Part shown: piece after piece, positions 3,981 through 34,500 of the stretch
Numbering within the stretch: position 1 is the first letter of the stretch
How the letters are laid out: the number at the start of each line of letters is the position of its first letter
Assembly: GCA_011524675.1 (NCBI GenBank)
Contig: WTJX01000555.1
Location: 3,034 to 51,859 of the forward strand
DNA length: 48,826 nt
Direction: 5' to 3'
From: Cytophagales bacterium
Lineage (GTDB): Bacteria > Bacteroidota > Bacteroidia > Cytophagales > JAAEPT01
Notes under the pieces: model-generated
Database searches by the model: none
Told to the model about the DNA's origin: nothing
What the model saw: the letters and a program-made list of their open reading frames with translations, nothing else
Made by a program: the position numbers and the translations under genes

Positions 3981-6900
3981 ATGGCCAAAATCAGTAATAA
4001 AATTGCTTATCCAGGAGCTAATCCTATTGAGGGTGAAGATTATTTAATTGGAACAGACGCAAACTCATCACCTATTGAGCTGCAAACCAAAACCTTTTTA
4101 ATATCTGACCTTAAAAGTTTTATTATTGATGACCTTTTTGATGGCGTTGCCTATCGTTTGCCTGTTTTTACAGCAGCTGCTGAAGGAGAGGATTCTGAAA
4201 AAATTGTTCCTTCTATTGTAAAACAAGACGTAGCTCAAGTTTCAGGCACATCTATTTTAGGCACTACTATTACAATTGATAATAATGCAGGGGGTGGAAG
4301 CTTAGTTGTTACCGATGCTTTTACCCCTTTTGGCCTTTCAACCTTTGAAGGCGATGTTATTTTAAAGAAAACCAATACACTTGTAGGTGACGCTGAATTG
4401 TATTTGCTTGGTAAAATATATGACGCTAATTCTAATCTTGGAAACAATGAGCAAGTTTTAGTTTCAGATGGATTAGGAAATGTAACATGGCAAAATTTTC
4501 AAGGCTCTGGTCTTGAGTTTCAAGGAGCGTGGGATGCCAGAACAGTTGCTGAAGGTGGGTTAACCGATGGAGGTAATCCTGACCTTCAAAACATACAACT
4601 TATTCCAGGTAATACAGGTAAATACTGGGTTGTATCACAAGCAGGCTCAGCATCATTACAAGGACAAACAGGTACAATTACTCAATGGAGTCCAGGCGAC
4701 TGGGCAATTGTATCCGAAGACGATGCTGGAAATGTATTTTGGGATAAGATAGACAACTCATCTGTTGATGGAGCAGGTACAGAAAACAACATTGCTATGT
4801 GGACTTCAGCCAAAACTCTTGGCAATGCAGCTCCAGTCACAATGATACAAGACCCTGACCCTAATGTGAGTACTCTTACTTTTTCTGGCGGAAATAAAGT
4901 TGTTTTTGACACAGCTATAGAGCTTCAGCAAGAAGTGTTTGATAATGGAGCTAACGCAGGAACATCAAATGATATCCTTGTGTCAGACTCTTCCAGCCAA
5001 CTTTCTTATCAAAACCTCAGCACAATCCACGTTAATAGTGCGGAAAAACTTACACAACAAGTTATATTTAGAGAAGCTGTTACTGTTGGTGACCCAGTTT
5101 ATATAGTAGGTTATAATAATGGTCAAAGTCTTACAGAGGTTGAAAAAGCTGACGCATCAGATGTTAATAAAATGGCTGCCATTGGTTTAGCTAAACAAAC
5201 AAAATTAGCAAATGAAATAGGCGATATAGTTATTTCAGGAGACTTTCCTGATATTGATACTTCCTCTTACACTGTAGGTGACTCTTTGTATGTTGCTGTA
5301 GGTGGAGGGTTGACAAATACAAAGCCAATCGTACCTAACTTAATACAAAAAATTGCTATTGTTTCACGCTCTAATGCGAACAATGGCGACATTGAAGTTT
5401 TTGCTGTAGGTCGTACAAACGATGTTCCAAACCTAACTGAAGGTAGAATATTTGTAGGAAGCGCAGCAAACACTATTGAATCAGACACTGTATTTTTAAA
5501 TGAAAGTAAACATTCCGCTACTATAGGAGCAAATACTAATTCAGCCACTGCAGATTTTTCTATAGCTATGGGAAGTGGTACATCGGCAACTGAAATAGCT
5601 GCAACTGCAATGGGAACTGGTACAACAGCAAGCGGAGCAGCTTCAGTCGCAATGGGAGATACTTCAACAGCTATTGGAGATTATTCTTTTGTTGTTGGGT
5701 TGTCTTCAAATGCAACCGCACAACACGCTGTTGCTATTGGAGAATCAAATACCGCTGGTTCTCCTAATTCAGTTGCAATAGGTGACAACAATACTATCTC
5801 AACACAACAAGGAGGTATAGCTATTGGCACACAAAATACAGTAAATGGTGGCAATGCCTTTGCATTAGGCTCACAAGTAACCGCTTCAGGAAACACATCT
5901 TTAGCTACAGGATATCAAACATCGGTTCTTGGAAACTACAGTATTTCCTCTGGACTTTCAACAGAAACAAAAGGGCAGCAATCTATTGCTGGAGGCATAG
6001 GCTCAGTAGTTAGGTCAAGTTCTGACAACTCAATAGCTTTTGGAAACAAGGTTATAGCTGGATTAGGAATAACTGACTATAAAGAAAACGCAGCTTTTGG
6101 GTTTGAAACTTTAGCTGGAGGCTCATTCGGTTCTTTCGCGATGGGCTGGAGGTCTTTTAATGTGGGTTCTGAAGGTCTCGCATCAGGACATGGAAGCTTT
6201 GTTTCAGGCCATGGTTCAGGCGCGCTTGGAGAAGGTTCAAGTGTTACAGACGTAGCTGCTGGAGTTTTAAATACATCATCAGGTGTAAACACCACACAGT
6301 TTCAACTTATAAATGTAGTAGGCGGAGCAAACATACAAGTTGGAGATACAATATATAATAACGGCTCAGGCTCACAGGATTGGACAGAAAGCAATGATTT
6401 TAGAATAAATACAATTGTTTCAGCAAATCAGCAAGCAACCACACCTGCTGGTGATGTATATTTTATTACTGTAAACGCACCAGGATTTAAAACAAATCAA
6501 GGAGAAACTGTTTCTATTGTCAGAACAGTAAATGCCACAGAAGGTTCTTTTGCTATTGGAGCGCATAGTATTACATTAGGAAACAGAAGTACGTCTATAG
6601 GATATTTTGCCAAAGCAGAGTCTGACCAATCAGTAGCTATAGGCGAACATGCTTGGACAAAAAACACAGGCAGCGTTTCTATTGGCAAGTATGCTATTGA
6701 TGATGCAGCCGAACAAGTTGCTATTGGAGGTACGACAGTTCGTTTAAACGCTTATGGAACAGGTACCCCAATTACAGGAACTGTTGTGGCTAATTTAGGT
6801 GTAGATTCTACTGGAAAAGTTATTGAAACAGACCCATCTGTTGATGGTTCTGGCACAGTAGACTTCGTTCCAAAATGGACACCTGACGGCAACACTTTAG

Positions 6901-8933
6901 GTGATTCGATAATTTTTGAAGACCCAAATAATCCATTTATAGGAATTGCAACCAGTAACCCAAGCTATCCTCTTGATGTAGATGGTGATAATGCTATAGC
7001 CATTAATGGCACTGCTATTGCGCACCAATCAAGCGGGCCTATTCCTGGCGCACCTAACGCAAGTGGTATTATACAGCTTGGAGATGTAGATGGTGGCGCA
7101 AATGTTTTAGGCTTGATGGATGATGCTTCTACAGAAGTAGTAAGAATACAGAGAGACTCTAACAGTGTCAGCGAAGTAATCTTTTATGATACAGTTCGAG
7201 CGCAGTTTGGGGATTCAATTACTGGTAGCGGTGCACAAGGAGAAATATATTCAGATGGTAATAATTTCCGTATAGCAGAAATTGGCGGTGGAAATTTATA
7301 TCTATCAGGTTCAGAAGTAATTATAAATGACACTACAACTGGCCTACAATACTTTCATGGTACGAATGGTACAACTGTAAAGCTTTATGGAAATGACCCT
7401 CTTGCTGGTTCTACTATTCAGTTAGAAACAGCTTCCACTGGCGTTACTATTAATAATGACTTAACGCTTGCTGATTATGGTCAAGCTGGTAAAGGAGGAA
7501 CTGTTGCGTTTAATTTGGCTGTAGATTCTACTGGAAAAGTTATTCAGACTACTGATGGGGGTGGAACAGTTACAGGAACTGGAACTACTAACAAACTTCC
7601 TATATGGACTGATGGCCCTGCTGGAGAATTAGGAGATAGCGGTTTAACACAAGATAATGCTGGACTAACATTTACTATTAATGGCAACAATTCTGTTTTA
7701 GGAAATGCAGGAAATTTATCATTAGCTGGTCAAATAACTACTGGTTCAGTAACTCAAGGAACTTCTACATTTAGTAACGTAGTTGCTGTAGCAACAAGGT
7801 TGGACGCTGGTACAACCGCTGCAGCTGGAGCTACAGCTTTAGATGTAAAACAAAAAGCTTTCGTAAGAGCAGGTCTTGTAGTAAGCGAGTTCCCAGGAAA
7901 TGTCACAGTTGATAACACAGCCATTGTAGTTGGTGCTGGTAATAATGATATTGTTACTGGCTCTGACCATTGTATAGCTGTTGGTAATGGTAATCAAATT
8001 AATAATAACTCTGATAATTCAGCTGTATTTGGCCAGGGTAACACAATTGATGAAGCTGACGCATGTTTGGTAGCTGGACTAACTAATAGTATTACAGGAA
8101 CTCAAGGAATAACTGAAAGGTCTGCAGTAGTAGGTTTTAACAATTCATTACAAGGATATGCTTCAGCAGTTTATGGAGGGTCAAGCACAGTTGTAGTTGA
8201 TAACAATGCTTTTGTATTAGGATTTGACCACGATGTTAATGCTCCAAACTCTGATTCTATATTTGTATTTGGAGAACAAAATGACTTTGCAGATGGTGGA
8301 ACTAATGCTGCTAACGTCTTTATGATAGGAGCTGACCTTGCTGGAAACGATGGCACAATGGTTCTTGGATATAGAAACGATAACACACAATATCCAGCTG
8401 AGAATAACATAAATGGTCTTGGTGAAACTAAATTTGTAGTAGCTGTAGGTTCTGCGCCAAATAACACAAATCAAGTAAATGCACTTTTAATTACAGAAGG
8501 TGGGGTTAACAAATCAAATACACCTCAAATACCTCGCGTAATAATGCCATCTGTAACTAATTTTGAGTTTGATGATGACCCTGACGCAACCGCCAATGCT
8601 ATACCGCAAGGTGGGTTATATCACAAAAATGGTAATTTATATATTAACACTGGTAGCTCAACAATAACTCGTGGAACATGGACACCAAGTTTGGGTAGTA
8701 TAGGAGCTTCAAATTTTAATTTTACACCTACAGTTCAAGGTGGTGAATTTAAACGCATAGAAGATATGATGTTTTGTTACTTCACTTTAGCTGGAACAGT
8801 AACTTACAATACAAGTAATGGCGGTTTCCCTTTACTAACTGGACTTCCAGCCAGTTACACTGTTCGCACAAATCCGTTTCAAGAACTGCTATCAGGAACG
8901 ATAACACACAATATCCAGCTGAGAATAACATAA
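3981..8933 (+). CDS. tail fibre / adhesin-like protein, C-terminally truncated by a 521-bp tandem duplication
   Basis: 1650 aa, Gly/Ser/Thr/Asn/Ala-rich. Contains long runs of YadA-head/Hep_Hag-like repeats (SIAMGSGTSA, AVAIGESNTAG, SVAIGDNNTIS ...) and repeated 'VDSTGKVI' modules. The frame is broken at the duplication junction (8896/8897) and ends in ...SGTI-THNIQLRIT*. Confidence 0.8.
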   Translation: MAKISNKIAYPGANPIEGEDYLIGTDANSSPIELQTKTFLISDLKSFIIDDLFDGVAYRLPVFTAAAEGEDSEKIVPSIVKQDVAQVSGTSILGTTITIDNNAGGGSLVVTDAFTPFGLSTFEGDVILKKTNTLVGDAELYLLGKIYDANSNLGNNEQVLVSDGLGNVTWQNFQGSGLEFQGAWDARTVAEGGLTDGGNPDLQNIQLIPGNTGKYWVVSQAGSASLQGQTGTITQWSPGDWAIVSEDDAGNVFWDKIDNSSVDGAGTENNIAMWTSAKTLGNAAPVTMIQDPDPNVSTLTFSGGNKVVFDTAIELQQEVFDNGANAGTSNDILVSDSSSQLSYQNLSTIHVNSAEKLTQQVIFREAVTVGDPVYIVGYNNGQSLTEVEKADASDVNKMAAIGLAKQTKLANEIGDIVISGDFPDIDTSSYTVGDSLYVAVGGGLTNTKPIVPNLIQKIAIVSRSNANNGDIEVFAVGRTNDVPNLTEGRIFVGSAANTIESDTVFLNESKHSATIGANTNSATADFSIAMGSGTSATEIAATAMGTGTTASGAASVAMGDTSTAIGDYSFVVGLSSNATAQHAVAIGESNTAGSPNSVAIGDNNTISTQQGGIAIGTQNTVNGGNAFALGSQVTASGNTSLATGYQTSVLGNYSISSGLSTETKGQQSIAGGIGSVVRSSSDNSIAFGNKVIAGLGITDYKENAAFGFETLAGGSFGSFAMGWRSFNVGSEGLASGHGSFVSGHGSGALGEGSSVTDVAAGVLNTSSGVNTTQFQLINVVGGANIQVGDTIYNNGSGSQDWTESNDFRINTIVSANQQATTPAGDVYFITVNAPGFKTNQGETVSIVRTVNATEGSFAIGAHSITLGNRSTSIGYFAKAESDQSVAIGEHAWTKNTGSVSIGKYAIDDAAEQVAIGGTTVRLNAYGTGTPITGTVVANLGVDSTGKVIETDPSVDGSGTVDFVPKWTPDGNTLGDSIIFEDPNNPFIGIATSNPSYPLDVDGDNAIAINGTAIAHQSSGPIPGAPNASGIIQLGDVDGGANVLGLMDDASTEVVRIQRDSNSVSEVIFYDTVRAQFGDSITGSGAQGEIYSDGNNFRIAEIGGGNLYLSGSEVIINDTTTGLQYFHGTNGTTVKLYGNDPLAGSTIQLETASTGVTINNDLTLADYGQAGKGGTVAFNLAVDSTGKVIQTTDGGGTVTGTGTTNKLPIWTDGPAGELGDSGLTQDNAGLTFTINGNNSVLGNAGNLSLAGQITTGSVTQGTSTFSNVVAVATRLDAGTTAAAGATALDVKQKAFVRAGLVVSEFPGNVTVDNTAIVVGAGNNDIVTGSDHCIAVGNGNQINNNSDNSAVFGQGNTIDEADACLVAGLTNSITGTQGITERSAVVGFNNSLQGYASAVYGGSSTVVVDNNAFVLGFDHDVNAPNSDSIFVFGEQNDFADGGTNAANVFMIGADLAGNDGTMVLGYRNDNTQYPAENNINGLGETKFVVAVGSAPNNTNQVNALLITEGGVNKSNTPQIPRVIMPSVTNFEFDDDPDATANAIPQGGLYHKNGNLYINTGSSTITRGTWTPSLGSIGASNFNFTPTVQGGEFKRIEDMMFCYFTLAGTVTYNTSNGGFPLLTGLPASYTVRTNPFQELLSGTITHNIQLRIT
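8376..8896. repeat. tandem direct repeat, copy 1 (521 bp)
   Basis: Identical by eye, base for base, to 8897-9417. AACGAT microhomology at 8376-8381. Confidence 0.9.
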
Positions 8934-9417
8934 ATGGTCTTGGTGAAACTAAATTTGTAGTAGCTGTAGGTTCTGCGCCAAATAACACAAATCAAGTAAA
9001 TGCACTTTTAATTACAGAAGGTGGGGTTAACAAATCAAATACACCTCAAATACCTCGCGTAATAATGCCATCTGTAACTAATTTTGAGTTTGATGATGAC
9101 CCTGACGCAACCGCCAATGCTATACCGCAAGGTGGGTTATATCACAAAAATGGTAATTTATATATTAACACTGGTAGCTCAACAATAACTCGTGGAACAT
9201 GGACACCAAGTTTGGGTAGTATAGGAGCTTCAAATTTTAATTTTACACCTACAGTTCAAGGTGGTGAATTTAAACGCATAGAAGATATGATGTTTTGTTA
9301 CTTCACTTTAGCTGGAACAGTAACTTACAATACAAGTAATGGCGGTTTCCCTTTACTAACTGGACTTCCAGCCAGTTACACTGTTCGCACAAATCCGTTT
9401 CAAGAACTGCTATCAGG
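8897..9417. repeat. tandem direct repeat, copy 2 (521 bp)
   Basis: Identical to 8376-8896. AACGAT occurs at 8897-8902 and again just past the repeat at 9418-9423. Confidence 0.9.
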
Positions 9418-9604
9418 AACGATTAAAAAGGCTTCAGGCTTGAGCGCTTTGATTACAGGATTTACTAATGGGCCTGGTAGTCAGGACGTTTCGTTTGAGG
9501 TAATAAGTGGCAATAATACTATACAAATGGCAACCAATAATACAGGAATACAAAGCGGAGTTGCCTTTTCTATACGAGGAAGCTTAACGTATATCATACA
9601 ATAA
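9065..9604 (+). CDS. detached C-terminal fragment of the tail fibre (179 aa), carrying the authentic C-terminus
   Basis: Its first 120 aa (MPSVTNFEF...QELLSGTI) are identical to residues inside the 3981..8933 product. Its last 59 aa (KKASGLSAL...GSLTYIIQ) occur nowhere else. Whether it is translated independently is unknown. Confidence 0.5.
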   Translation: MPSVTNFEFDDDPDATANAIPQGGLYHKNGNLYINTGSSTITRGTWTPSLGSIGASNFNFTPTVQGGEFKRIEDMMFCYFTLAGTVTYNTSNGGFPLLTGLPASYTVRTNPFQELLSGTIKKASGLSALITGFTNGPGSQDVSFEVISGNNTIQMATNNTGIQSGVAFSIRGSLTYIIQ

Positions 9605-9851: not shown

Positions 9852-10076
9852 ATGGATATAAGAAAAATATCAGTTGGCCCTGATTATAAGTCAGGCGCAA
9901 TGCACTACTTGGTAGGTCAAGAAGTTTTAGGTGGTAACTACGTTATTCATTTAATTAAGTATGATGACCTAAAAGAATCTTTCAAAATTTATATTCAAGA
10001 TAATGAGGTCGTGATGCTGTGGAAAGAGTTTACTTCCACAATGCCAATATCAATTGAATATAATATAAACTTTTGA
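9852..10076 (+). CDS. hypothetical protein
   Basis: 74-aa ORF. Its stop overlaps the next ORF's TTG start (TTGA). Confidence 0.5.
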   Translation: MDIRKISVGPDYKSGAMHYLVGQEVLGGNYVIHLIKYDDLKESFKIYIQDNEVVMLWKEFTSTMPISIEYNINF

Positions 10077-10636
10077 AATCACCATTTAACTTTATAGTAC
10101 AGCCTTTTGAAGAGAAAAGATACAACAATACAAAAAGTATTGGCGGTATAGATTTTGTTGTAAGCACATCAGAAGAAGACGTAAAACACTCAAACAGAGA
10201 AGCTGTTGTAATATCTACTCCTATTAATTACTGTGGAGATATAGAGCCTGGAGACATACTTTTAGTACATCATAATGTATTTAAGTTCTATAATGATATG
10301 TATGGACGAAGAAAAAGCGGTAAAAGCTTTTTAAAAGATAATCTGTTTTTGGTAGATAATGACCAGTTTTTTATGTACAAAAAAATACACAACTGGTATG
10401 CGCACGACAGATATTGTTTTGTTGAACCTCTTCCAACTGAGGAGTCGATTATTTTTAAAAATACAAAAGAAGAACCATTGGTTGGTAAAATGGTTTATCC
10501 AAACCGAGCTTTGACTCGCCAAGGCGTAAAGAAAGGAGACAAAGTTTCTTTCAAGCCTGATAGCGAGTATGAGTTTGAAGTAGACGGAAGAAAGCTTTAC
10601 AGAATGTATGACCATCAAATAACAATGGTGCTATGA
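10073..10636 (+). CDS. hypothetical protein; tentative GroES/gp31-like beta-barrel(s)
   Basis: 187 aa. 'FNFIVQPFEE..TKSIGGIDFVV....EAVVIS.......IEPGDILLVHHNVF' and a second 'LVGKMVY.......VKKGDKVSF' resemble the GroES pattern (I.P..drvlv....e.t.gGI.l......g.Vvav....v..GD.V.f). This is pattern recognition only. Confidence 0.45.
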   Translation: MKSPFNFIVQPFEEKRYNNTKSIGGIDFVVSTSEEDVKHSNREAVVISTPINYCGDIEPGDILLVHHNVFKFYNDMYGRRKSGKSFLKDNLFLVDNDQFFMYKKIHNWYAHDRYCFVEPLPTEESIIFKNTKEEPLVGKMVYPNRALTRQGVKKGDKVSFKPDSEYEFEVDGRKLYRMYDHQITMVL

Positions 10637-10914
10637 AATCTACAGAAGAAATTAAATTGCAGATTATAGACGCAGGACGTAGAGCTGTTGAACAGTTAAT
10701 AAAAGTCGCAAAAGAAGATATCATCAAACCTGACCCTGAAGACGACTTAGCTGCTGACAGATTAAAAAACGCAGCAGCTACAAAAAAGTTAGCAATCTTT
10801 GACGCATTTGAGATTTTAAACAGAATTGAAAGTGAAAAAGAAGCATTATCTTTAGGTAACACTAATACTAAATTAGATTCAAAACAAGGGTTTGCAGAAA
10901 GAAGGTCAAAATAA
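10633..10914 (+). CDS. small helical protein; candidate small terminase subunit by position only
   Basis: 93 aa, ATGA-coupled upstream, overlaps the terL start. Charged helical composition. No motif evidence. Confidence 0.35.
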   Translation: MKSTEEIKLQIIDAGRRAVEQLIKVAKEDIIKPDPEDDLAADRLKNAAATKKLAIFDAFEILNRIESEKEALSLGNTNTKLDSKQGFAERRSK

Positions 10915-13138
10915 TTTATATTCAGTAGCACATGATTATGTGCGTAAGTCTGTTATAACCAACAAAAATAGAAATAGAAGTTGGGTGTATGGCTATAACC
11001 CAAAGTATGATATGGTGGTCATATCTAAAACAGGTCAAATCGGAGATGTAATAAATATAAACGGATTATTTATTGCTCTACCAAAAACTCCAAAACAGTG
11101 TCTTCAAAGACACTCTTCTTCTGATAAACAATATTGGGAACGAGAAGAACTTCCAAAACCATTATCCAGAATACAATCTATATTTCAGTGGAATGAAATG
11201 TCATCTGATTTCAAAAACAGATGGGTTGATTATATAGAAAGTGAATTTGATAAAAGAGAACAAGGATTGTGGTTTATGAATGGTGGCAAGCCTACTTATA
11301 TAACTGGAGCTCATTATATGTATTTGCAATGGACTAATATAGACGTGGGGTATCCAGAGTATCGCGAAGCTAATCGTTTGTTCTACATATACTGGGAAGC
11401 TTGCAAAGCAGACAAAAGATGTTTTGGAATGATATACTTAAAAATCAGACGTTCAGGGTTTTCTTTTATGGGGTCTTCAGAATGTATTAACACAGGAACA
11501 TTAGCAAAAGATTCAAGGGTTGGCATATTGTCTAAAACTGGTGCTGATGCTAAAAAAATGTTTACTGACAAAGTAGTTCCTATATCAAATCGACTACCAT
11601 TCTTTTTTAAACCTATTCAAGATGGTATGGATAAACCGAAAACTGAATTAGCTTTTAGAATACCAGCATCAAAGATTACGAAAAAAAATATGTATGATGT
11701 AGAGTCTGAAGAGCTGTACGGCCTTGACACTACAATAGATTGGAAAAATACAGACGACAACAGTTACGATGGTGAAAAGCTTTTACTACTTGTACACGAT
11801 GAAAGCGGTAAGTGGGTAAAGCCAAACAACATTCTAAACAACTGGCGAGTAACCAAAACTTGTTTGCGTTTAGGTAGCAGAATAATTGGCAAATGTATGA
11901 TGGGGTCTACTTCAAATGCTTTAGACAAAGGAGGAGATAATTTTAAAAAGCTATATTACGATTCAGATGTTACTAATCGAAACGCAAACGGCCAAACTAA
12001 AAGCGGACTATATTCTTTGTTTATACCTATGGAGTGGAACATGGAAGGTTTTATTGATAGGTATGGCATGCCTGTTTTCAAAACTCCTCAATCACCCAAA
12101 GTAGACTCTTATGGTGAGTATATTGACCAAGGCGCTTTGAATTATTGGGAAAATGAAGTCTCATCTTTAAAATCTGACCCTGACGCTCTCAACGAGTTTT
12201 ACAGGCAGTTCCCTCGCACAGAGTCGCATGCGTTTAGAGATGAAAGCAAACAGTCTTTATTTAATCTAACTCGCATATATCAACAAATTGATTACAATGA
12301 TTCCATGATAAAAGAGCATTATTTAACAAGAGGTTCTTTTTCGTGGAAGGATGGAATAAAAGACACGACTGTTATATGGTCACCAGATAAGCGAGGTAGG
12401 TTTTTAGTTTCCTGGTTGCCGAGTGCAAATTTACAAAATAGAATTGTAAAAAAGAATGGTAAAATGTATCCAGGCAATGAGCACTTAGGAGCGTTTGGAT
12501 GTGACAGCTATGACATTTCAGGAACAGTTGGCGGTAAAGGTTCAAACGGAGCTCTTCATGGACTAACAAAGTTTAATATGGATAATGCGCCCAGCAATGA
12601 GTTTTTTTTAGAATATATAGCCAGACCACAAACAGCTGAAATATTCTTTGAGGACGTGCTTATGGCGTGTGTATTTTATGGGATGCCTATCCTGGTGGAA
12701 AACAACAAGCCACGTTTGTTGTATCATTTTAAAAACAGAGGATACAGAGGGTATAGTATGAATCGTCCTGACAAACAATTTAACAGACTTTCTAAAACAG
12801 AAAGAGAACTGGGGGGTATACCCAACAGTAGTGAAGATATTAAACAAGCTCACGCATCAGCAATCGAGTCTTACATAGAAAAATATGTAGGTATAGATTT
12901 AGATGGCACTTTTAGAGACTCAGATGCAATGGGAACTATGCCTTTTATTAGGACTTTAGAGGATTGGGCAAAGTTTGATATTAGCAACAGAACGCGCTTT
13001 GATGCGTCTATTAGCTCTGGTTTAGCTATTATGGCGTGTCAAAAGCACTTATATATGCCTGAAAGAAAAGAATCAAAAATAAAACTTAACTTTGCAAGGT
13101 ATACTAACAAGGGAGTATTAAGTGAACTAATAAGATAG
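10892..13138 (+). CDS. terL: terminase large subunit
   Basis: 748 aa directly upstream of the portal gene. Deviant Walker-A-like 'LKIRRSGFSF', Walker-B-like 'LLLVHDESG', and acidic nuclease-half motifs ('AFGCDSYD'). The start is uncertain: TTG at 10892, and the first in-frame ATG is codon 41 (nt 11012). Confidence 0.75.
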   Translation: MQKEGQNNLYSVAHDYVRKSVITNKNRNRSWVYGYNPKYDMVVISKTGQIGDVININGLFIALPKTPKQCLQRHSSSDKQYWEREELPKPLSRIQSIFQWNEMSSDFKNRWVDYIESEFDKREQGLWFMNGGKPTYITGAHYMYLQWTNIDVGYPEYREANRLFYIYWEACKADKRCFGMIYLKIRRSGFSFMGSSECINTGTLAKDSRVGILSKTGADAKKMFTDKVVPISNRLPFFFKPIQDGMDKPKTELAFRIPASKITKKNMYDVESEELYGLDTTIDWKNTDDNSYDGEKLLLLVHDESGKWVKPNNILNNWRVTKTCLRLGSRIIGKCMMGSTSNALDKGGDNFKKLYYDSDVTNRNANGQTKSGLYSLFIPMEWNMEGFIDRYGMPVFKTPQSPKVDSYGEYIDQGALNYWENEVSSLKSDPDALNEFYRQFPRTESHAFRDESKQSLFNLTRIYQQIDYNDSMIKEHYLTRGSFSWKDGIKDTTVIWSPDKRGRFLVSWLPSANLQNRIVKKNGKMYPGNEHLGAFGCDSYDISGTVGGKGSNGALHGLTKFNMDNAPSNEFFLEYIARPQTAEIFFEDVLMACVFYGMPILVENNKPRLLYHFKNRGYRGYSMNRPDKQFNRLSKTERELGGIPNSSEDIKQAHASAIESYIEKYVGIDLDGTFRDSDAMGTMPFIRTLEDWAKFDISNRTRFDASISSGLAIMACQKHLYMPERKESKIKLNFARYTNKGVLSELIR

Positions 13139-15574
13139 ATGAAAGACGTTAAAGTAGATATTTCATCTGTAGGTTTTCCAAGCCAGTTTGTGTCTGATGC
13201 AGAAAAAGCAACAGACCAATTTGGTCTACAAATTGGACAAGCAATACAGTATGAGTGGTTTAAAAAAGATGGTAACGGATGTCGTTACTATGACCAATGG
13301 AGAAACTTTCATAGACTAAGGTTATACGCAAGAGGAGAACAATCAGTTGGTAAGTACAAAAACGAATTAGCTGTTGATGGAGACTTGTCGTATCTAAATT
13401 TAGACTGGACACCTGTACCTATTCTACCTAAGTTTGTAGACATTGTTGTAAATGGAATGTCGGATAGACTATTCAAAGTAAGTGCTTACGCACAAGACGC
13501 AATGTCGCAAGCTAAACGTAGTAAATATCAAGACCAGATAGAAGGTCAAATGGCTGCTAAAGATATTTTACTTGATATACAAAAAGCCACAGGAGCTGAC
13601 CCTTTTACCACAGACCCAGACACGCTACCAAACAATGACGAAGAGCTTTCGTTATACATGCAGCTTAACTACAAGCCAGCAATTGAAATAGCCGAAGAAG
13701 AAGCTATTAGCACCATTTTAGAAGAGAACCATTATGTTGATATACGCAAACGATTAGACTATGACTTGACTGTATTGGGTATTGCTTGTGCGAAACATGA
13801 GTTTTTGCCTGGCGCTGGTGTAGAGGTTGAGTACGTAGACCCTGCTAATATTGTATATAGTTATACAGAAGACCCACATTTCAAAGATTGTTTTTATTGG
13901 GGTGAAATAAAAACCCTACCTATTGCTGAGCTTTTAAAAATAGACCCTAACCTTACAAGAGAAGATTTAGAAGAAATAAGTAAATACTCACAAAGCTGGT
14001 ATGACTACTACAATGTAGCTCAGTTTTATGAGAATGATATTTTTTATAGAGACACTTGTACACTTATGTATTTTAATTACAAGACCACAAAAAAGATGGT
14101 CTATAAGAAAAAGATATTAGAGGGTGGTGGCAGTAAAATTATTGAGAAAGACGACCAGTTCAATCCGCCAGTCGAAATGATGGAGGAAGGAAAGTTTGAA
14201 AAGTTAGAAAAAACTATTGACGTATGGTATGATGGAATCATGGTTATGGGAACAAACATTTTATTAAAATGGGAAGTTGCCGAAAACATGGTTCGACCTA
14301 AATCAAGTAGCCAGCACGCTTTACCTAATTACGTAGCTGTTGCTCCACGTATGTACAAAGGTGTTATTGAGTCGTTAGTTAGACGAATGATACCTTTTGC
14401 TGATTTAATACAAATCACTCATTTGAAACTACAACAAGTAATTTCAAGGGTTGTTCCAGATGGGGTATTTATTGATGCAGATGGATTAAATGAAGTAGAC
14501 TTAGGAACAGGCAACGCTTATAATCCTGAGGACGCTTTACGATTGTACTTCCAAACAGGTAGCGTTATAGGCAGAAGTTATACTCAAGATGGCGACTTTA
14601 ATCAAGCAAGAGTGCCAGTTCAGCAATTAACTTCAAATAGCGGCCTTAGCAAGACTCAAATGCTTATTGCTAACTACAATCATTATTTAGACATGATACG
14701 CGCTGTAACAGGCTTAAATGAAGCGAGAGATGGCTCTACGCCAGACCCTAACTCTTTAGTTGGTTTACAGAAGCTTGCAGCTCTTAATTCTAATACCGCT
14801 ACAAGACACATATTAGATGGTAGTCTATACATATATCGAACCATTGCTGAAGCTCTTACATATAGAGTTGCAGACATATTAGAATATGCAGACTTCAAAG
14901 ATGACTTTGCTAACAAGATAGGCAAATACAATGTCAGCATACTCAATGATATATCTGATTTATATATATACGACTTTGGTATATTTATAGATGTAGCGCC
15001 TGATGAAGAAGAGAAAGCTCAGCTTGAAGCTAACATACAGATGGCTTTATCCAAACAAGATATTAATTTAGAAGACGCTATTGATATTAGGGAGATAAAA
15101 AATATTAAACTTGCAAACCAACTTCTGAAAGTTAAAAGACAACAGAAGCAAGAGCAAGATGAAAAAGCTGCAATGTTAAAACAGCAGATGCAAGCTGCGC
15201 AACAATTAAAGTCGCAACAAATGGCTGCACAAGCAGCAATGCAAAAAACACAGGCAGAGTCTCAAGCTAAGATGCAAATCAAACAAGCAGAAATTGCTTT
15301 TGAGATTGAAAAAATGAAAAATGAAGCTCAACTTAAAAGTCAATTGATGGCTCAAGAATTTGAGTACAACAAACAATTAAGAGACGTATCAGAGCAAGCC
15401 TTAGCGAGTCGTGAGCTTCAAAGAGAAAGCGCTAAGTCTAAAAGAATTAGTCAACAAAACCAGGAGCAGTCTATGCTAATTAACCAACGAAAAAACAATT
15501 TACCTCCTCAAAAGTTTGAGTCAAATGAGGACAGTTTAGATGGGTTTGATTTAGCAGAGTTTGGCCCTCGATAG
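13139..15574 (+). CDS. portal protein (by position and size)
   Basis: 811 aa. Its ATG abuts the terL stop. Gln/Ala/Lys-rich coiled-coil C-terminal tail (QQMQAAQQLKSQQMAAQAAMQKTQ...). No catalytic motifs are expected for a portal. Confidence 0.65.
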   Translation: MKDVKVDISSVGFPSQFVSDAEKATDQFGLQIGQAIQYEWFKKDGNGCRYYDQWRNFHRLRLYARGEQSVGKYKNELAVDGDLSYLNLDWTPVPILPKFVDIVVNGMSDRLFKVSAYAQDAMSQAKRSKYQDQIEGQMAAKDILLDIQKATGADPFTTDPDTLPNNDEELSLYMQLNYKPAIEIAEEEAISTILEENHYVDIRKRLDYDLTVLGIACAKHEFLPGAGVEVEYVDPANIVYSYTEDPHFKDCFYWGEIKTLPIAELLKIDPNLTREDLEEISKYSQSWYDYYNVAQFYENDIFYRDTCTLMYFNYKTTKKMVYKKKILEGGGSKIIEKDDQFNPPVEMMEEGKFEKLEKTIDVWYDGIMVMGTNILLKWEVAENMVRPKSSSQHALPNYVAVAPRMYKGVIESLVRRMIPFADLIQITHLKLQQVISRVVPDGVFIDADGLNEVDLGTGNAYNPEDALRLYFQTGSVIGRSYTQDGDFNQARVPVQQLTSNSGLSKTQMLIANYNHYLDMIRAVTGLNEARDGSTPDPNSLVGLQKLAALNSNTATRHILDGSLYIYRTIAEALTYRVADILEYADFKDDFANKIGKYNVSILNDISDLYIYDFGIFIDVAPDEEEKAQLEANIQMALSKQDINLEDAIDIREIKNIKLANQLLKVKRQQKQEQDEKAAMLKQQMQAAQQLKSQQMAAQAAMQKTQAESQAKMQIKQAEIAFEIEKMKNEAQLKSQLMAQEFEYNKQLRDVSEQALASRELQRESAKSKRISQQNQEQSMLINQRKNNLPPQKFESNEDSLDGFDLAEFGPR

Positions 15575-21182: not shown

Positions 21183-24100
21183 ATGCCAACTACGCAAAGA
21201 AATTTTATAGCTGGACGAATGAACAAGAGCGTTGATGAACGCCTTGTGCCTAACGGAGAATATATAGACGGACTCAACGTCAGATTAGGTTCTACCGAAC
21301 AGTCGGAGATTGGCTCAGTAGAAAACTCTAAGGGAAACGAAAAGATTACTTCATTAGAGTTTAACAATGTGCCACTTAGTAATCAAGCCAAATGTATTGG
21401 TTCGTTTGAAGATGGACAAAGAGAAACCATAATATGGTTTGTTCATGACCCAGCTTTTCCAGGTTCACCATCAAATATATTAGACTTAATAGTTTCATTC
21501 AATGTTGTTGAGAATGTAACTACATATCATGCTGTTAGTGTAAATGATGGAAGTCAAACTAAAACTACATTAGATTTTAATCCTCAGTTTTTAATTACAG
21601 GTGTTAATCGAGTTGAAGATTTATTATTTTTTACAGATAATATAAATCCACCCAGATTCATAAACCTTGTAACAGGGAAAACATTACCCAACGGAGTTCC
21701 TTTAGTCGACAGTTTTACTGCTGAAGAACTGCTGGTAATTAAAAAACCACCAAGCTCATCTCCAAAGATTACACTTCAAAACGTAAGTGGAGAAGAAAAT
21801 TTTTTGGAAGAAAGATATTTATCTTTTGCGTACAGATATCAATATGCTGATGGAGAATATTCGGCTCTATCTCAATTTTCGGACATAGCTTTTCAGCCAA
21901 GTAATTTTAGTCTTGAAACTGACTCAGGATTAAATGAAGGCATGAAAAATGTTTTTAATTCTGTAAAAATTGAATATAACACAGGCAGTGAATTAGTAAA
22001 AGACGTTGAAGTTGTTTTCAAAGAATCTACAAGTGGTGTCATCAAGTCTATAGAAAAATTCAACAAATTTGAATTAGGTTTAGCAAACAATACTGATTAC
22101 GAAATTAATTTTACTAATAGTAAAATATTTACTGTTTTACCAAATACAGAACTTGTGCGCCTTTACGATAATGTGCCGATAAGAGCAAAAGCACAAACCA
22201 TTATGGGTAATCGTCTTGTTTATGGAAACTATGTTGATGGTTTTGATTTACTTGATAAAAACACCAACCCTGTTAAATTTGAATATAGTGCAACTTTAAT
22301 CTCGGAAGAGATAGGTTTAAATGAGTTGGAAGACGAAGCAGCAGAGCAAATTTATACAGTAGACGCTCCAATAAATATATTGAATGGAAGAGTTAATTTT
22401 GATTTAGATGGGTTAGAACTCAAACAAGGAGCAACTCTAAATTTAGAAGTAAGATTTGGGCACTCTACTTTTGGCGGACAAACTCCATTCCCAGCTGAGC
22501 AAACAGACCAAATAGATATAGCGCTTACCTTTATATTGCCTCAAGATTTCAATAGTGTTTATGAATTAGCTACTGACCCAGCTTTTGCGGAGCTTGTGGG
22601 AACTTCATCAAATATAAAACCAGTGTTTGACCCAGTTCCAGGTAACCCAACTTCGTGTGATGGTTTTACTTTTACTGACCAGTTTAATTGTGCTGTGCCA
22701 AATAACCTGGATAGTTTAACAAAATTTGCCAGTGGCGTTACTTCTACAGGTCAAGCTATACAAGTATATACATCCCCTGGTAGCAACGAAATAGGATTTA
22801 GTTTGTTAGCTATGGAGTTTGTTGATGATACAACAACTCCTACTCAAAGAGTGTACGAATACTATGACATTGTAACTGCAGATGGTACTTATACCGAGTT
22901 AGGAAACCCCAAAAGTTTGCATAGCAATAGAGATTATGAGATTGGGATTGTGTATATGGACGAATTTAATAGGTCAACCACTGCGCTTGTCAGTCCTTTG
23001 AATACCATTCATGTTCCCTGTTCACTATCAAGCCTGGTTAACAAAGTACAAATAAGCATACCGCCTACTCAATTAGCTCCAGTTTGGGCATCAAAATATA
23101 AATTCGTAATAAAACCAGATATGGAAGATTACGAAACTATTTTTACTAATGTATTTTTTAACGACCCAACAACTAACGAAACTTTGTTTTTATTACAAGG
23201 AGAAAACGCCAGAAAAGTAGAAGAGGGCGATAGACTTATAGTTAAAAGAGATACTGATGGCCCAACAGAAAGGTGTAATTATGCTACTGTTTTGGAAAAA
23301 TCAGCTCAGACTAAAGACTTTTTAGACCCAGCTCCGACTGATGCAGATGGTAACGATTTGTTTGTTCCTGCAGGAACTTACATGAGAATTAAAGCAAATG
23401 ACTTTAATGTTATTCAAGGTGACCTTCCAACTATAGCTCCAGGCGTAAAAAAAGACACAGCAAAAGACGATGATGCACATCCTATAGTTAGGTATCCTGT
23501 AAACATTGAAGACCCAAACAATGCAGGAGCTTTCATAGATTACACTATACCAGCTGGCTCAAGGGTTAACATGTCATGGTATTTTAATAGACCTGGTATA
23601 CGTACTAAGTGTGAAAGAAGAAGGTACACGCTTGAAATAGACCACGTTTCTGCACAAAACTATGATAATTTTGTAGATTTTTTTAATGGAGAAAATATTG
23701 CGCCACGATTAAATACAGGAACAGCTGAAACAAAAGGTGAGGCTGATTGTCCACCTCCATACTTCAGAACTCAATACATTCAGCAAATAGCGACAAATAA
23801 AAACGATATACCTACAGCATCATGTACGTATTATTTTAAGTTCTTTAGAGATACCCAAACCAATGAAACATTGTTTATGGTAACTGGAACAAATACTTGT
23901 CGCCACATAGGTAGTGGTTCACGTAAAAGAAGAGCGAGTGTAGAAATGGAGATTACTGTTATTAGAGCAGAATCTACTATAGTGTTTGAAACTTTACCTC
24001 AAGACGCAACGCCAGATTTATGGTATGAGTCTTCTCAGTCTTATGACATAGACACTACAACTGGACATCATTCAGGGAATGTACAATCGCAAACAGACGT

Positions 24101-25607
24101 TCAGTCAGCTATTATAGACACTGCATTTTTTAATTGCTATGCTTTTGGCAATGGTGTAGAGAGCTACAAAATTAGAGATTCTATAATAGGAAAAGAATTT
24201 GCACTTGGAGAAAGAACAGCGTCAACTTCAGAAGTTGATTTTAAAGAAGCTCATAGGTTTGCTGATTTAACTTATAGTGGTGTTTACAATGACGAGTCTA
24301 ATGTAAATAAACTCAACGAGTTTAATTTAGGTCTACTTAACTTCAAGCCATTAGAAGATACTTTTGGCTCAATACAAAAATTAGATGGACGAGAAACAGA
24401 TATATTAGTATTGCAAGAAGATAAAATATCTTACGTCTTAACAGGTAAAAACCTCCTATCTGATTCAACTGGCGGTGGGCAAGTGGCATCTGTTCCTGAA
24501 GTTTTAGGAACTCAGATTGCGCGTATTGAAGAATATGGTATTAGTAAAAACCCAGAAAGCTACGTACAATGGGGATTCGATAAATACTTTACTGACTCTA
24601 AAAGAGGAGTTGTTTTAAAACTTTCTGGCTCTGGTCAGAGCGAACAACTAACTGTTATTTCAGAGTTTGGATTGCGTTCTTATTTTAGAGATTTATTTAT
24701 AGCTTCTCCAGACACGCAGAAGTTGGGTGGGTATGACCCATATATGAACGAGTATGTTATTAGCTCAAACATGGAAGAATTACCAGACCTTCCATTGTGT
24801 TTTGATTGTGACCTTAAACGAACATTTAATTTAGAGGCCAACAATACAGTAGAATACTGTGTAGATGTAGGCCAGTTGGTTGGCAATGTAGCTGTCGATG
24901 TTATTATTGATGGTAGCGCTACAGTAACAGCTGAATACAACGGAACTACAAACAGCAGTAATTCTACAGGAACTATAAACATTGATAAGAATGTTGTAGA
25001 CAAAGAGGAGGTAAATATTACTATTGTGCCTTCTACTGACTCAATTGTTTCAGTTGTAGTTAATTGTCCTGTTGCTGATGTTATTACAATTGTTCAAGTG
25101 TGTTTAACAAATGCAACTGAAGCTGAACAGCTTATCCACAATGAATATAGATGGGTTGATGGAACATTTGTTTCACCATTACATTCGGAGCAAGTTCAAT
25201 TTATTGACGACACTGCATCCATAGTGGTATCACAATTTGAAAGTGTTACTGGCCCTCAAGGAGCAGGAGTAATCCCTGCCGATGGCGCAAGTGTTTCGAT
25301 TATATCCAGAAAAGATAATACAGATGACTTTGTTTTTGACCCAAGCCAAAATGAGTTTAGAGTTTTAAGAACAAACACTGTATATAACACAACTCCAGCA
25401 AGTATACTAAGTTTATTAAACGCTTCTGATTTGTTAACGACAGATACGTCACAAGCTCCAATAGCTTACAAATCATCGTTTATTATGCCAACTACTGGGG
25501 ATTACTTATATTTGATATACGATTACAGAAAATCAGTTGCAGAAGACTTGTGCTACTCAACAGTTGATTTAGATGACGTATGTTGTAATTGTACAGGAAC
25601 ACCATAA
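21183..25607 (+). CDS. large virion or tail protein (hub/nozzle-like, by size and position)
   Basis: 1474-aa uninterrupted ORF, beta-rich composition, Cys-rich C-terminus (...DLDDVCCNCTGTP). Confidence 0.55.
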   Translation: MPTTQRNFIAGRMNKSVDERLVPNGEYIDGLNVRLGSTEQSEIGSVENSKGNEKITSLEFNNVPLSNQAKCIGSFEDGQRETIIWFVHDPAFPGSPSNILDLIVSFNVVENVTTYHAVSVNDGSQTKTTLDFNPQFLITGVNRVEDLLFFTDNINPPRFINLVTGKTLPNGVPLVDSFTAEELLVIKKPPSSSPKITLQNVSGEENFLEERYLSFAYRYQYADGEYSALSQFSDIAFQPSNFSLETDSGLNEGMKNVFNSVKIEYNTGSELVKDVEVVFKESTSGVIKSIEKFNKFELGLANNTDYEINFTNSKIFTVLPNTELVRLYDNVPIRAKAQTIMGNRLVYGNYVDGFDLLDKNTNPVKFEYSATLISEEIGLNELEDEAAEQIYTVDAPINILNGRVNFDLDGLELKQGATLNLEVRFGHSTFGGQTPFPAEQTDQIDIALTFILPQDFNSVYELATDPAFAELVGTSSNIKPVFDPVPGNPTSCDGFTFTDQFNCAVPNNLDSLTKFASGVTSTGQAIQVYTSPGSNEIGFSLLAMEFVDDTTTPTQRVYEYYDIVTADGTYTELGNPKSLHSNRDYEIGIVYMDEFNRSTTALVSPLNTIHVPCSLSSLVNKVQISIPPTQLAPVWASKYKFVIKPDMEDYETIFTNVFFNDPTTNETLFLLQGENARKVEEGDRLIVKRDTDGPTERCNYATVLEKSAQTKDFLDPAPTDADGNDLFVPAGTYMRIKANDFNVIQGDLPTIAPGVKKDTAKDDDAHPIVRYPVNIEDPNNAGAFIDYTIPAGSRVNMSWYFNRPGIRTKCERRRYTLEIDHVSAQNYDNFVDFFNGENIAPRLNTGTAETKGEADCPPPYFRTQYIQQIATNKNDIPTASCTYYFKFFRDTQTNETLFMVTGTNTCRHIGSGSRKRRASVEMEITVIRAESTIVFETLPQDATPDLWYESSQSYDIDTTTGHHSGNVQSQTDVQSAIIDTAFFNCYAFGNGVESYKIRDSIIGKEFALGERTASTSEVDFKEAHRFADLTYSGVYNDESNVNKLNEFNLGLLNFKPLEDTFGSIQKLDGRETDILVLQEDKISYVLTGKNLLSDSTGGGQVASVPEVLGTQIARIEEYGISKNPESYVQWGFDKYFTDSKRGVVLKLSGSGQSEQLTVISEFGLRSYFRDLFIASPDTQKLGGYDPYMNEYVISSNMEELPDLPLCFDCDLKRTFNLEANNTVEYCVDVGQLVGNVAVDVIIDGSATVTAEYNGTTNSSNSTGTINIDKNVVDKEEVNITIVPSTDSIVSVVVNCPVADVITIVQVCLTNATEAEQLIHNEYRWVDGTFVSPLHSEQVQFIDDTASIVVSQFESVTGPQGAGVIPADGASVSIISRKDNTDDFVFDPSQNEFRVLRTNTVYNTTPASILSLLNASDLLTTDTSQAPIAYKSSFIMPTTGDYLYLIYDYRKSVAEDLCYSTVDLDDVCCNCTGTP

Positions 25608-31528: not shown

Positions 31529-34500
31529 ATGAACGAACAAGCTTTTATTGATGCTTACAATATGTTTCTCCAAGGAGGATACAGAGGTTCTCGCGATGAG
31601 TTTAAAGAGCTCTTAGCTGGAAACCCTGATGCTCTAAATGACTCATTTGAAATGTTTAAACAAGGTGGCTTCAACGGAACAATTGAGGACTATCAAACCT
31701 TGATAGGCATTACCGCAGTAAAAAAAAAAGACGAACCAGATATGGTTTCAGGTTTGGAAACTGGTTTGTTGGACTCGTCAGAGCGTGAACAAATACTTCA
31801 AGCCGAACCACCCCAGGTTGCTATTGATGCCACAGAAGTAGGTCAACAAAAGTTTATATCTCCTATAGAAGCTGCGGAAGCGACTGCTCGAAGAGAAGAG
31901 TTTGAAGCTGACAGAGCTGTTAAAATGCAACAATTCCAGGAGCAAGAACAAGAAAAGGCTGAAGCTGCTGAACTGGAAAGAAAAAAACAATCTGAAATAC
32001 TTTTACAAGACCCTGAGTTTGCTTTAGCTGTTTCAAATTTAGATGCTAAACTTATAGCAAAGGAAGAAGAGGATGTTGTTCCTTTCATGATAGACAACTT
32101 TCAAAAGTATGGATTTACTTTTGAAGAGGCAGGTTTAGGAGACGCTATGCTTGTAACCACTTCGGATGGTAAGAACACTATAAGCATAGACCTTGACCCT
32201 TTTACATCAAAGACCGAAGTGCTTGAATCTCAAAAGCTAAAAGACTTCATAAGCGAGCACGCTTTATCTCCAAAAGAAAAAACAGCTGAGGAAAGTCTAA
32301 ATGAAAAAGCTATGCGTGCACAGCAAATGCGCAAGTTTGCTCGCGTTAATCCAGATGGTTCTCGGTCTACAGTTTTGTTTACTTCATTTGAAGAAGATGG
32401 TAAGTACAAAGTAATCCCTACATTGTTTCCTAAAGACCCAAACTTCTATGGCTCTGCTGCAAACACGTGGCAAGAGTTAGGGTTTGATGACGCTAAATTG
32501 TTAGCGGAAGAAAGAGGGGAAGTGTTTGAGTTTGATACGCAAGAAGAAGCAGAAGAGTTTGCTCAAGGTTCGTGGAAAGATAGACACTCATCGCATGCCT
32601 TAGGTCAAGTTATCTATGCAGAGGAAGGTTTAGATTTCGCAGAAGAGAATAAAATTTATCAAAACTATTTAAAGGTAAGAGATAAAATTGATTTTATTGA
32701 AGGGGAGTTGGCTGAGTTTGGAGCAGAGTATCTAAAAGACCTAACGGAAGAAGAGCGTAAAAAATACAGCAATCTCTATGTGGATGGTATCATGCGTGAT
32801 GACATACAACAAGTTCTTACTGACTTGAAACAGCAAGAGCAAAATCTTTTTGATGTTGTTATGGATGATGATAAGATTAGACTGAGAGAATCTTTGGACG
32901 TAGAGTTAGAAAAAGAATATCAAAAGGTAGCGCAAGTAGCCGCACAAACAAATGCTCAGGCAGAGTTCTTTTTAGATAATTTGCAATTGCAATCTCTTAC
33001 AACCTTTGGAGTTAAGCTTGAAGATTTAAACTCAATAAAACCTCAGACTGAAGCTGAAGCAGATTTAATTGATGGACTCAAGGTTGCGTACAGAGAGGCT
33101 CAAGCTACAAAAACTAATGCTGCTCAAAAGTATGAGCAAGCTTTAACATTTTATGATGCCAAGCATGACCAAACAATAACTGATGAGTTTACAGATAACT
33201 TTACATCGGTTATTCAAGAGTTTCAAAAAGGACTTAACAATGGAAATGCAGGTGAGGTTTTGTTGCAACTATCAACTGGTTTACCATTTGACTTTTCCAC
33301 TTTAGATGTCAATGACCCAGAAGATATAAAGAAAGCTGCACAAATGATAGCTACATTCAAGGGTAAGAATATAAACTACAAAGACTCTCGAATTATGTCC
33401 AGGTGGAATAGAGCTAAAGGTTTAAAAGAAACCATGAAAGTTTTTGCAGATGACCCTGCAGAGTTAGCACTTACACTTGCTGCTAACAGCATTGGTCAGA
33501 TGTTGCCGTATGGATTTGAAATAATAACTGGAAGCACTGTGGCTGGCGCTGGTATAGGAACAGCTATTGCACCAGGCCCAGGAACAGTAAAAGGAGCTAC
33601 TCGTGGATTTAGAGTTGGATTTGCTGCAACATCTTTAGCATTAGAATATACCAATGCTTTTTTTGAAGCTATGCAGAAAAAAGGACTTAATCCTTTAGAC
33701 CCTGAAGACAATGTGGCAGCCATTAATGACCCTGAGATATGGGAGATAGCTAAAGAGCGTGGAATGAAACGTGGTATCCCTATCGCTGTAGTAGATTACC
33801 TTAGCGCAGGACTCGCTGGTCGTGTCTTTAAAGTTAGCAGTATGGCTGGCAGAGGTACGCGTTTTACAGCATTTGCCGCTGAGCGTTCACTGATTGACCC
33901 TGTTACAGAAGGCTTAGGTGAAACATTAGCACAGGTAAACGTAGGTGATGAGATAAATGTAAAGGATATTTTAGCAGAATCAATAGGTGGGTTTGGAAAC
34001 AACACCTCTCACATGGCTGTTAATTTATTTGTAGATAGCAGAAAGCTTAGTAACATAGAGCTTGCAGATACATTCACCGACATACCATTGCTTTTGGAGG
34101 CAAGAGGAACTAACACACAGATATCAAAGTGGTCTAATAACATGGAGAGACTTGGTCAAATTGACCAAGATGTTAATCAAAGGATACAAAAAAACTTAGG
34201 TTTATCTAAAGACGCTGATAACTTACTACAGTTAGGAGTGGGCAAAAACACACCAGCAAACAAAGCTTTGAAGGCAAGAGTTATGCAACTATTAGCAGCC
34301 AAAGAAGAATACACTGCAACGCCAAACAGAAAAGCTGTATTTGGTAAAAAGGTAGCAGACATTAACTTTGAACTTGCTTTCATTACTGAAAACAAAAAAC
34401 AACTACCACCAGGTCAACGAACATTATTGGAAGGCTTAGTCGAGTCTACCCCTGAAGTTCGTCAGGATGTTGGAAGATACACAATAGATGGCAAGCGTGT

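Follow-up and report, generated by a model that had tools for sequence, protein, structure and literature searches.

A 521-nt tandem duplication bounded by microhomology disrupts the putative tail-fibre gene of an uncultured marine podovirus assembled from a metagenome

A stretch of 48,826 nucleotides (nt) from contig WTJX01000555.1 of GenBank assembly GCA_011524675.1 (positions 3,034–51,859, forward strand; termed the window) carries a long open reading frame for a putative tail fibre that is interrupted near its 3′ end by a perfect tandem duplication of 521 nt. The window covers most of an uncultured marine podovirus genome, assembled from a metagenome. The large terminase (phrog_6681), the portal, capsid-region proteins, an amidase, a holin and a GroES-like gene match those of Flavobacterium, Cellulophaga, Tenacibaculum and Maribacter phages; the host is probably one of the marine Flavobacteriia. 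The nearest GenBank record is MW202828 (Caudoviricetes sp. ctfjg026), a metagenomic phage from spring water with 76% terminase identity. A nucleotide search of GenBank phages with the locus gave no match, and the phage is without a close cultured relative. Near-identical contigs are found in many metagenomes, Tara samples included.

The disrupted fibre gene has the lysis genes on one side and, on the other, the small genes found ahead of the terminase. Its major open reading frame (ORF1, positions 3981–8933, plus strand) encodes 1650 amino acids (aa). Residues ~520–660 resemble the YadA head/trimeric autotransporter adhesin beta-roll (PF05658, 5.4e-14), and in a tblastn search residues ~330–495 are 34%–50% identical to cyanophage and Flavobacterium phage proteins that carry a tail-fibre annotation. 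These homologies are at the level of annotation; none is to an experimentally characterised fibre. A second, smaller open reading frame on the plus strand (ORF2, positions 9065–9604, 179 aa) follows ORF1.

The duplication consists of copy 1 (positions 8376–8896) and copy 2 (positions 8897–9417), which lie head to tail with no spacer between them. A script comparison and a repeat finder both show that 521/521 positions match. The earlier note on this DNA had described the two units as base-for-base identical, and a check for a mismatch that it might have overlooked gave 0/521. Tandem Repeats Finder does not report the duplication because the longest period it considers is 500. An exact repeat of this length cannot be a chance occurrence in 49 kb.

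At a period of 521 nt, identity spans 527 nt (8376–8902 vs 8897–9423). The hexamer AACGAT is found at the left breakpoint (8376–8381), at the novel junction (8897–8902) and at the right breakpoint (9418–9423), a 6-nt microhomology of which a single copy is kept between the two units. When 200,000 duplication junctions were simulated at random positions in the window sequence, a microhomology of at least 6 nt was present at 0.26% of them. The junction is therefore not an arbitrary join.

The length of the unit (521 = 3 × 173 + 2) results in loss of the fibre frame at the junction. Copy 1 encompasses fibre codons 1466–1639 plus 2 nt. Copy 2 is out of frame in ORF1, and its authentic frame is that of ORF2. 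Residues 1–1641 of ORF1 are authentic and end in ...ELLSGTI; these are followed by nine foreign residues, THNIQLRIT (codons at 8904–8930), and by a TAA stop codon at 8931–8933. The first 120 aa of ORF2 repeat ORF1 residues 1522–1641, and its last 59 aa (KKASGLSAL...GSLTYIIQ) occur nowhere else. These 59 codons and their stop codon make up the unique 3′ end of the fibre gene (positions 9425–9604, plus strand; KKASG...YIIQ), which is beyond the reach of ORF1. All coordinates of the frameshift, the stop codon and the stranded 59-residue tail given in the earlier note proved correct. Deletion of one copy in silico gives a single 1700-aa open reading frame, as had been predicted, and the same 1700-aa open reading frame exists naturally in six relatives. 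The peptide ...SGTITHNIQLRIT is a target for virion mass spectrometry, alongside peptides from KKASGLSAL...

The relatives were found by searching for contigs that encode an identical 72-aa downstream protein or an identical terminase. This yielded 16 distinct related contigs from different samples (given L-numbers here; L018 is the same contig as L012), and two further retrieved loci are outside this count. The region is covered in 13 of the 16. All 13 have one copy of the unit with AACGAT at both boundaries, and none has the junction. The complete gene is present in six (L007, L008, L009, L011, L012/L018 and L016), and in the other seven (L006, L010, L013, L014, L015, L017 and L021) the single copy is present in a gene that is interrupted further upstream, at a scaffold gap or a contig end. 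Five of the six complete genes are 99.6%–99.8% identical to the window gene collapsed to one copy, and L016 differs from it at 167 of 5103 sites. Population identity is ~99.7%–99.9% in most assemblies. The locus is also single-copy and contiguous over the duplication site in L004 (IMG/VR IMGVR_UViG_3300033143_000073, 97.3% identical) and in the more distant L002 (43% aa identity in the region).

Since 13 of 13 relatives are single-copy and carry both boundaries, the duplication is the derived state and the restored 1700-aa open reading frame the natural gene. The single-copy relatives show the pre-duplication state expected from the mechanism that the earlier note had proposed, i.e. AACGAT in place at both future breakpoints. 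Thus adjoining direct copies, a microhomology at the breakpoints with one copy retained, and a single-copy ancestor are all found, as in a microhomology-mediated tandem duplication.

Among the contigs compared, a 30-mer across the junction (8882–8911) is present only in the window and in L005 (ENA ERZ23488323, BPAM22-1_SAMN08953401 scaffold_24, 51,858 nt). L005 was found by way of the 179-aa ORF2 product and is separate from the 16 contigs. It displays the same junction and identical copies, and it differs from the window by 11 single nucleotide polymorphisms over 19,604 compared positions. The window and L005 share private variants that are absent from all single-copy relatives: a G at position 12751 and a block of seven changes at 7102–7172. 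The two are thus sister genomes, in keeping with a single origin of the duplication in one sublineage. The 179-aa product, which is specific to the duplicated form, has entries from NCBI, JGI/IMG and ENA sources, and the longest contig is 56,458 nt. The 1650-aa product of the window has no exact match on record.

The block at 7102–7172 comprises 7 nt (5 aa) differences in the fibre shaft. The single-copy relatives, including the divergent L016, have the other allele, and the block may be a small recombination tract that marks the sublineage.

A 31-mer across the junction (CTGCTATCAGGAACGATAACACACAATATCC) was scanned in the viral_contigs, metagenome_contigs and genome_contigs collections with 0 matches. 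A control pattern from the right boundary, known to be present in the JGI contigs L010, L013 and L015, also gave 0 matches in metagenome_contigs and genome_contigs. These two collections therefore lack the samples concerned and their negatives say nothing on allele frequency, and the scan of viral_contigs is one without a comparable control. The metagenome_contigs collection lacks some JGI samples, and a negative scan there is not equivalent to absence. A literature search for the sample accessions yielded nothing.

These observations bear on the explanation that the DNA is in reality single-copy, and that the duplication was made in the library or by the assembler, either from chimeric molecules (template switching at AACGAT during the polymerase chain reaction or multiple displacement amplification) or from a contig overlap that was left unmerged. 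The perfect identity of the copies is what such an artefact would give. In addition, metagenome scaffolds of a single sublineage (the window and L005) are the only ones to show the duplication, with 13 other contigs single-copy; the 521-nt unit exceeds the length of a short read; and there are unresolved 100-N joins elsewhere in scaffolds of this series. However, an assembler that works on a de Bruijn graph cannot create a join at a 6-nt identity, and the junction k-mers must exist in the reads. An unmerged overlap would end at an arbitrary place, where a microhomology of this length is rarely expected (see the simulation above), and there are no Ns at the junction, unresolved joins in these scaffolds being marked by 100-N runs elsewhere. 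Copies left over from two haplotypes would be expected to show strain polymorphisms, and the two copies here show none. The junction is present in a second, non-identical assembly, so an assembler-made artefact is unlikely, and the 179-aa product comes from three source collections. Chimeric library molecules are still conceivable, but chimeric reads would seldom reach a coverage that survives graph cleaning. The earlier note had listed an assembly artefact among three options. That option stands at a lower level than was allowed there, with the junction recovered twice and the microhomology too short for a mis-join in the graph, and an artefact of any kind is here considered unlikely.

The argument from zero divergence of the copies to a very recent event did not hold. 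All 11 close relatives have the 521-nt unit without a single nucleotide change, although outside it they differ from the window at 0.1%–0.3%. With a unit that is invariant across the population, identical copies are expected for a duplication of any age up to that of the population. The duplication is young in evolutionary terms, and an origin within the sample is not required.

The part of the fibre that is affected was analyzed by comparison with homologues of its last 317 residues. In 45 of 47 database homologues the protein ends three residues after the motif ...GGLYHxxGxLxI, at a point equivalent to residue ~1558 of the restored protein. Therefore the last 142 residues are a separate C-terminal add-on module, which is confined to this clade and L002. 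The boundary of this module (termed the tip) was set from the homologues ending in ...GGLYHxxGxLxIxxx. The module before the tip is encoded at positions 8376–8654 and forms the natural C-terminus of most homologous fibres. ORF1 then runs into a truncated tip (8655–8903, plus strand), and the complete tip is encoded in copy 2 and the unique 3′ end (9176–9601, plus strand).

An exhaustive HMMER search gave eight weak relatives of the tip, four of which align over approximately the whole domain, at the extreme C-terminus of their proteins. The search-derived sequences in the resulting alignment (A2) all share GTWTPxL...G.Y.RIG...GLP...Y, which places the tip in a GTWTPxL...GLP...Y motif family. 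An AlphaFold (AF2) model of the tip, made from a seven-sequence alignment, is a beta-sandwich of medium confidence, with a predicted local distance difference test score (pLDDT) of 62.6 and a predicted template modelling score (pTM) of 0.63. Residues 1–70 and 130–141, the latter being the last strand, are modelled with confidence; residues 71–123 have a pLDDT <50. A single-sequence AlphaFold run on the last 235 aa was unusable (pLDDT 30).

A Foldseek search of BFVD with the tip model yielded 50 viral models at E ≤ 1e-3, with template modelling (TM) scores of 0.5–0.65 normalised to the query. Many of these represent tail fibres from T7-like phages, cyanophages or Cellulophaga phages. Podovirus fibre tips of this sort are likewise C-terminal beta-sandwiches. 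In contrast to them, the tip of the window has no significant match to a solved structure and no Pfam family. Binding of a receptor by it is presumptive. Sequence-profile and Foldseek searches of the PDB with the tip gave no significant match (best E = 0.02); the top rows (DDB2, and the Det7 tailspike at E = 0.02) were not used. Pfam searches with ORF1, ORF2 and the tip alignment showed no chaperone or Peptidase_S74 domain. The earlier note had described the lost domain as a receptor-binding or trimerisation/chaperone part of the fibre. The homologues and the BFVD matches support a tip of the kind found at tail-fibre ends; the chaperone or peptidase part of the description was not borne out.

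ORF1 retains tip residues 1–83 and loses residues 84–142, among them the conserved last strand with an invariant tyrosine. Because this strand is lost, a folded tip is unlikely, and by the model the remnant on ORF1 is most likely unfolded or non-functional.

The intact tip is 100% conserved at the protein level in 10 close relatives, within a gene that evolves rapidly. Comparison of the window, collapsed to one copy, with L004, the 97% relative, gives a ratio of non-synonymous to synonymous substitution rates (dN/dS) of 1.03 for the shaft and 0.96 for the tip (fibre region 3981–9604) vs 0.01 for the terminase and portal (region 10892–15574). Fibre variants in the close population comprise 122 non-synonymous and 51 synonymous nucleotides, and many are changes of 2–3 bases within one codon. 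The 1700-aa open reading frame nevertheless stays open across the population, and even L016, with its 167 differing sites in 5.1 kb, shows no stop codon. Fast evolution together with a frame kept open indicates that the fibre behaves as a functional, host-interacting protein, and the intact gene appears to be kept by selection.

One relative departs from this pattern. L004 has an in-frame TGA in the tip (L004 positions 1944–1946), equivalent to window codon N1613 (~8817–8819 in copy 1), within a cluster of amino acid changes. Either the tip has been truncated a second time, independently, or the TGA is a sequencing error. Recoding of TGA was considered as an explanation and rejected, as all other L004 open reading frames match those of the window in length.

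In L003 (1092–1457), the closest of the relatives that lack a tip, another fibre gene begins 1 nt after the stop codon and shares its N-terminal motif (MA+IS...LGTD) with the first. That gene was considered as a separate tip and rejected, being a second fibre gene that shares the N-terminal motif.

Taken together, the locus probably represents a real microhomology-mediated duplication that truncates the fibre tip, in the form of a minority, recent or lineage-restricted allele that is probably defective and that can revert. In the proposed process, illegitimate recombination or replication slippage would have joined two AACGAT hexamers 521 nt apart in replicating phage DNA. The event would have taken place in the distal part of the 1700-aa fibre gene, in one sublineage of a tight natural population. 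The resulting head-to-tail duplication would shift the frame, cut the fibre tip after 83 residues and add nine foreign residues. The allele might then persist as a sub-population, through intact fibres borrowed from wild-type genomes in the same cell, or because the phage does not strictly need the tip, and homologous recombination between the two 521-nt copies would restore the gene. Reversion by recombination between the copies is an established behaviour of tandem duplications. The duplication, its microhomology and the frameshift are present in the window sequence itself, the single-copy ancestral arrangement is present in the relatives and the second occurrence in L005; from these we infer the reality of the junction at the read level, the frequency of the allele and its phenotype.

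Several points weigh against this explanation. A short-read graph assembler threads a loop once even if few molecules carry the junction, and a copy number of two or more is not readable from reads shorter than 521 nt. Both junction-bearing assemblies could derive from the same or linked samples and would then amount to one observation. The loss-of-function phenotype is drawn from a model of medium confidence, in which residues 71–123 fall below the pLDDT value given above. Lastly, the TGA in the tip of L004 and a dN/dS near 1 may mean that loss of the tip is tolerated or even favoured.

Two precedents from cultured phages are close to the proposed duplication. Tandem amplifications in phage T4 have microhomologies of 6–10 bp at their bounds, with one copy left between the repeats (Srikant et al. 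2022, PMC9391042, and older T4 studies that it cites). As in the window, the T4 repeats are head to tail and the flanking microhomology is present in the ancestor, and the 6-bp AACGAT behaves alike. The T4 cases however involve whole genes, gene dosage and laboratory selection, whereas the window has an intragenic duplication of 521 nt in a wild uncultured phage, with destruction of the frame. The tail-fibre gene of Enterococcus phage EfV12-phi1 acquired internal, in-frame tandem duplications of 1.8 kb during coevolution; they recurred in all four replicates and were linked to increased infectivity, and copy number was mixed within a single isolate, where single-copy molecules persisted (Wandro et al. 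2019, PMC6365445). The EfV12-phi1 and window duplications are both near the distal receptor-binding end of a long putative fibre gene (6.6 and 5.1 kb, respectively). Unlike those of EfV12-phi1, the duplication in the window shifts the frame, cuts the tip short and is known from one sublineage only.

The same evidence can be read as an adaptive variant of host range or adsorption, and possibly as a reversible switch, where truncation of the tip is selected in some host environments and recombination restores it at high frequency. Fibres without a tip are the norm among the 45 of 47 homologues of the preceding module, and truncation might expose that module. A second independent truncation of the same tip would be present in L004, the fibre dN/dS is ~1 compared to 0.01 for the large terminase (TerL) and portal genes, and the lineage with the duplication is abundant enough to give contigs >50 kb. 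The in-frame tail-fibre duplications of EfV12-phi1 were themselves adaptive in a coevolution experiment (PMC6365445). Against this, the duplicated state occurs in one sublineage only, out of at least 14 assemblies, and the conservation of the tip in 10 relatives, together with a frame that is open across 167 substitutions, argues for selection for an intact tip. The truncation is also not a clean one, as 83 tip residues and nine foreign residues remain, and the TGA in L004 is a single observation that could be an error or a defective genome. An adaptive origin of the duplication is considered unlikely, slightly more so than an artefact.

As to a switch, no inverted repeats of at least 30 nt were found in the window, there is no short tandem or simple-sequence tract at the locus, and no match to a recombinase or reverse transcriptase was obtained among the 19 larger open reading frames scanned, which are a part of those in the window. 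Features of a shufflon, of a diversity-generating retroelement or of slippage did not emerge from these searches, and the duplicated state is limited to the sublineage of the window and L005. Thus nothing supports a programmed switch. A looser version is that the 142-aa tip is conditionally dispensable and is repeatedly knocked out, by the duplication here and by the TGA in L004, thereby altering receptor use, with the duplication acting as an unprogrammed reversible toggle. This is considered improbable.

There remains the status of ORF2. The 20 nt upstream of its ATG (position 9065) have an AT content of 0.60 and an A content of 0.35. The averages for 13 internal in-frame ATGs of the fibre gene are 0.58 and 0.31, and those for 17 genuine gene starts in the window are 0.82 and 0.51. 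Thus the ORF2 start looks like an internal ATG, not a true gene start. No promoter or RNA signal was found in the 521-nt unit, promoter-like sites being no commoner there than in shuffled sequence. Neither the unit nor ORF2 nor the opposite strand gave a match in Pfam, PHROGs or Rfam; the minus-strand open reading frames at 8171–8467 and 8782–8988 were taken as spurious. A separate ORF2 or tip gene is absent from all single-copy relatives. By these signs ORF2 appears to be a by-product of the duplication and not an independent gene; it would encode an intact tip with no shaft and no evolved start signal, and most likely is silent or poorly expressed.

Some phages have separate adhesin or tip subunits, and ORF2, which gene callers predict as a gene, holds the whole 142-aa tip and 37 residues of the preceding conserved module, but a functional split, in which ORF1 would supply the shaft and ORF2, translated on its own, a tip protein that joins the shaft, is very improbable, as this arrangement is found in no relative, the composition upstream of ORF2 is below that of real starts, the partial tip on ORF1 would clash with a separate tip protein, and copies without divergence give no sign of subfunctionalisation.

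Other features of the contigs were noted. Assembly breaks within the fibre gene of the relatives fall at ~6620–7040: there are 100-N gaps in L006, L010 and L013, and contigs start here in L004, L014 and L015. The breaks adjoin an internal direct repeat of 54 nt (6776–6829 and 7496–7549, 87% identical, 720 nt apart), which suggests that strains are hypervariable here or that the repeat made assembly fail. In L005 a 100-N scaffold gap ends exactly at the equivalent of window position 1 (AAAAAAAAGGTAATG...), and in the other scaffolded relatives checked (L007, L009 and L012) a gap lies at the matching distance from the downstream genes. The assemblies thus seem to break at a conserved place, which may be a genome terminus or a repeat.

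Flavobacterium phage 'elemo' and Cellulophaga podoviruses on the one hand and MW202828 on the other share with the window the terminase (45% and 76% aa identity, respectively), the portal, the GroES-like gene and a common gene order, i.e. lysis genes, fibre, small genes, TerL and portal. The syntenic fibre of MW202828 is 648 aa long and its C-terminus is unrelated to that of the window fibre; it was therefore dropped as a comparator. The GroES-like co-chaperonin gene of the window (10073–10636; phrog_13932, 5e-25) is just upstream of the terminase, and MW202828 has both GroEL and GroES. The N-terminus of a 1474-aa protein (21183–25607) matches the crAss-like phage muzzle family PF25731 (32.5 bits, cutoff 27). 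For a 2688-aa open reading frame downstream of it (31529–39595), neither Pfam nor PHROGs gave any match.

For annotation, the 1650-aa and 179-aa genes should be regarded as one disrupted 1700-aa fibre gene. The duplication is an ordinary mutation of a well-known kind, and probably short-lived. It is not a new mechanism, as tandem duplications bounded by microhomology, also in tail-fibre genes, are known from cultured phages (PMC9391042, PMC6365445). Should the toggle reading be true, the locus would be a reversible knockout of a receptor-binding tip in a wild marine phage. If the duplication is real at the read level, it would be a clean natural example of the breakage and repair of a fibre gene, with the alleles before and after the event, and the two microhomology sites, to be seen side by side in one wild population.

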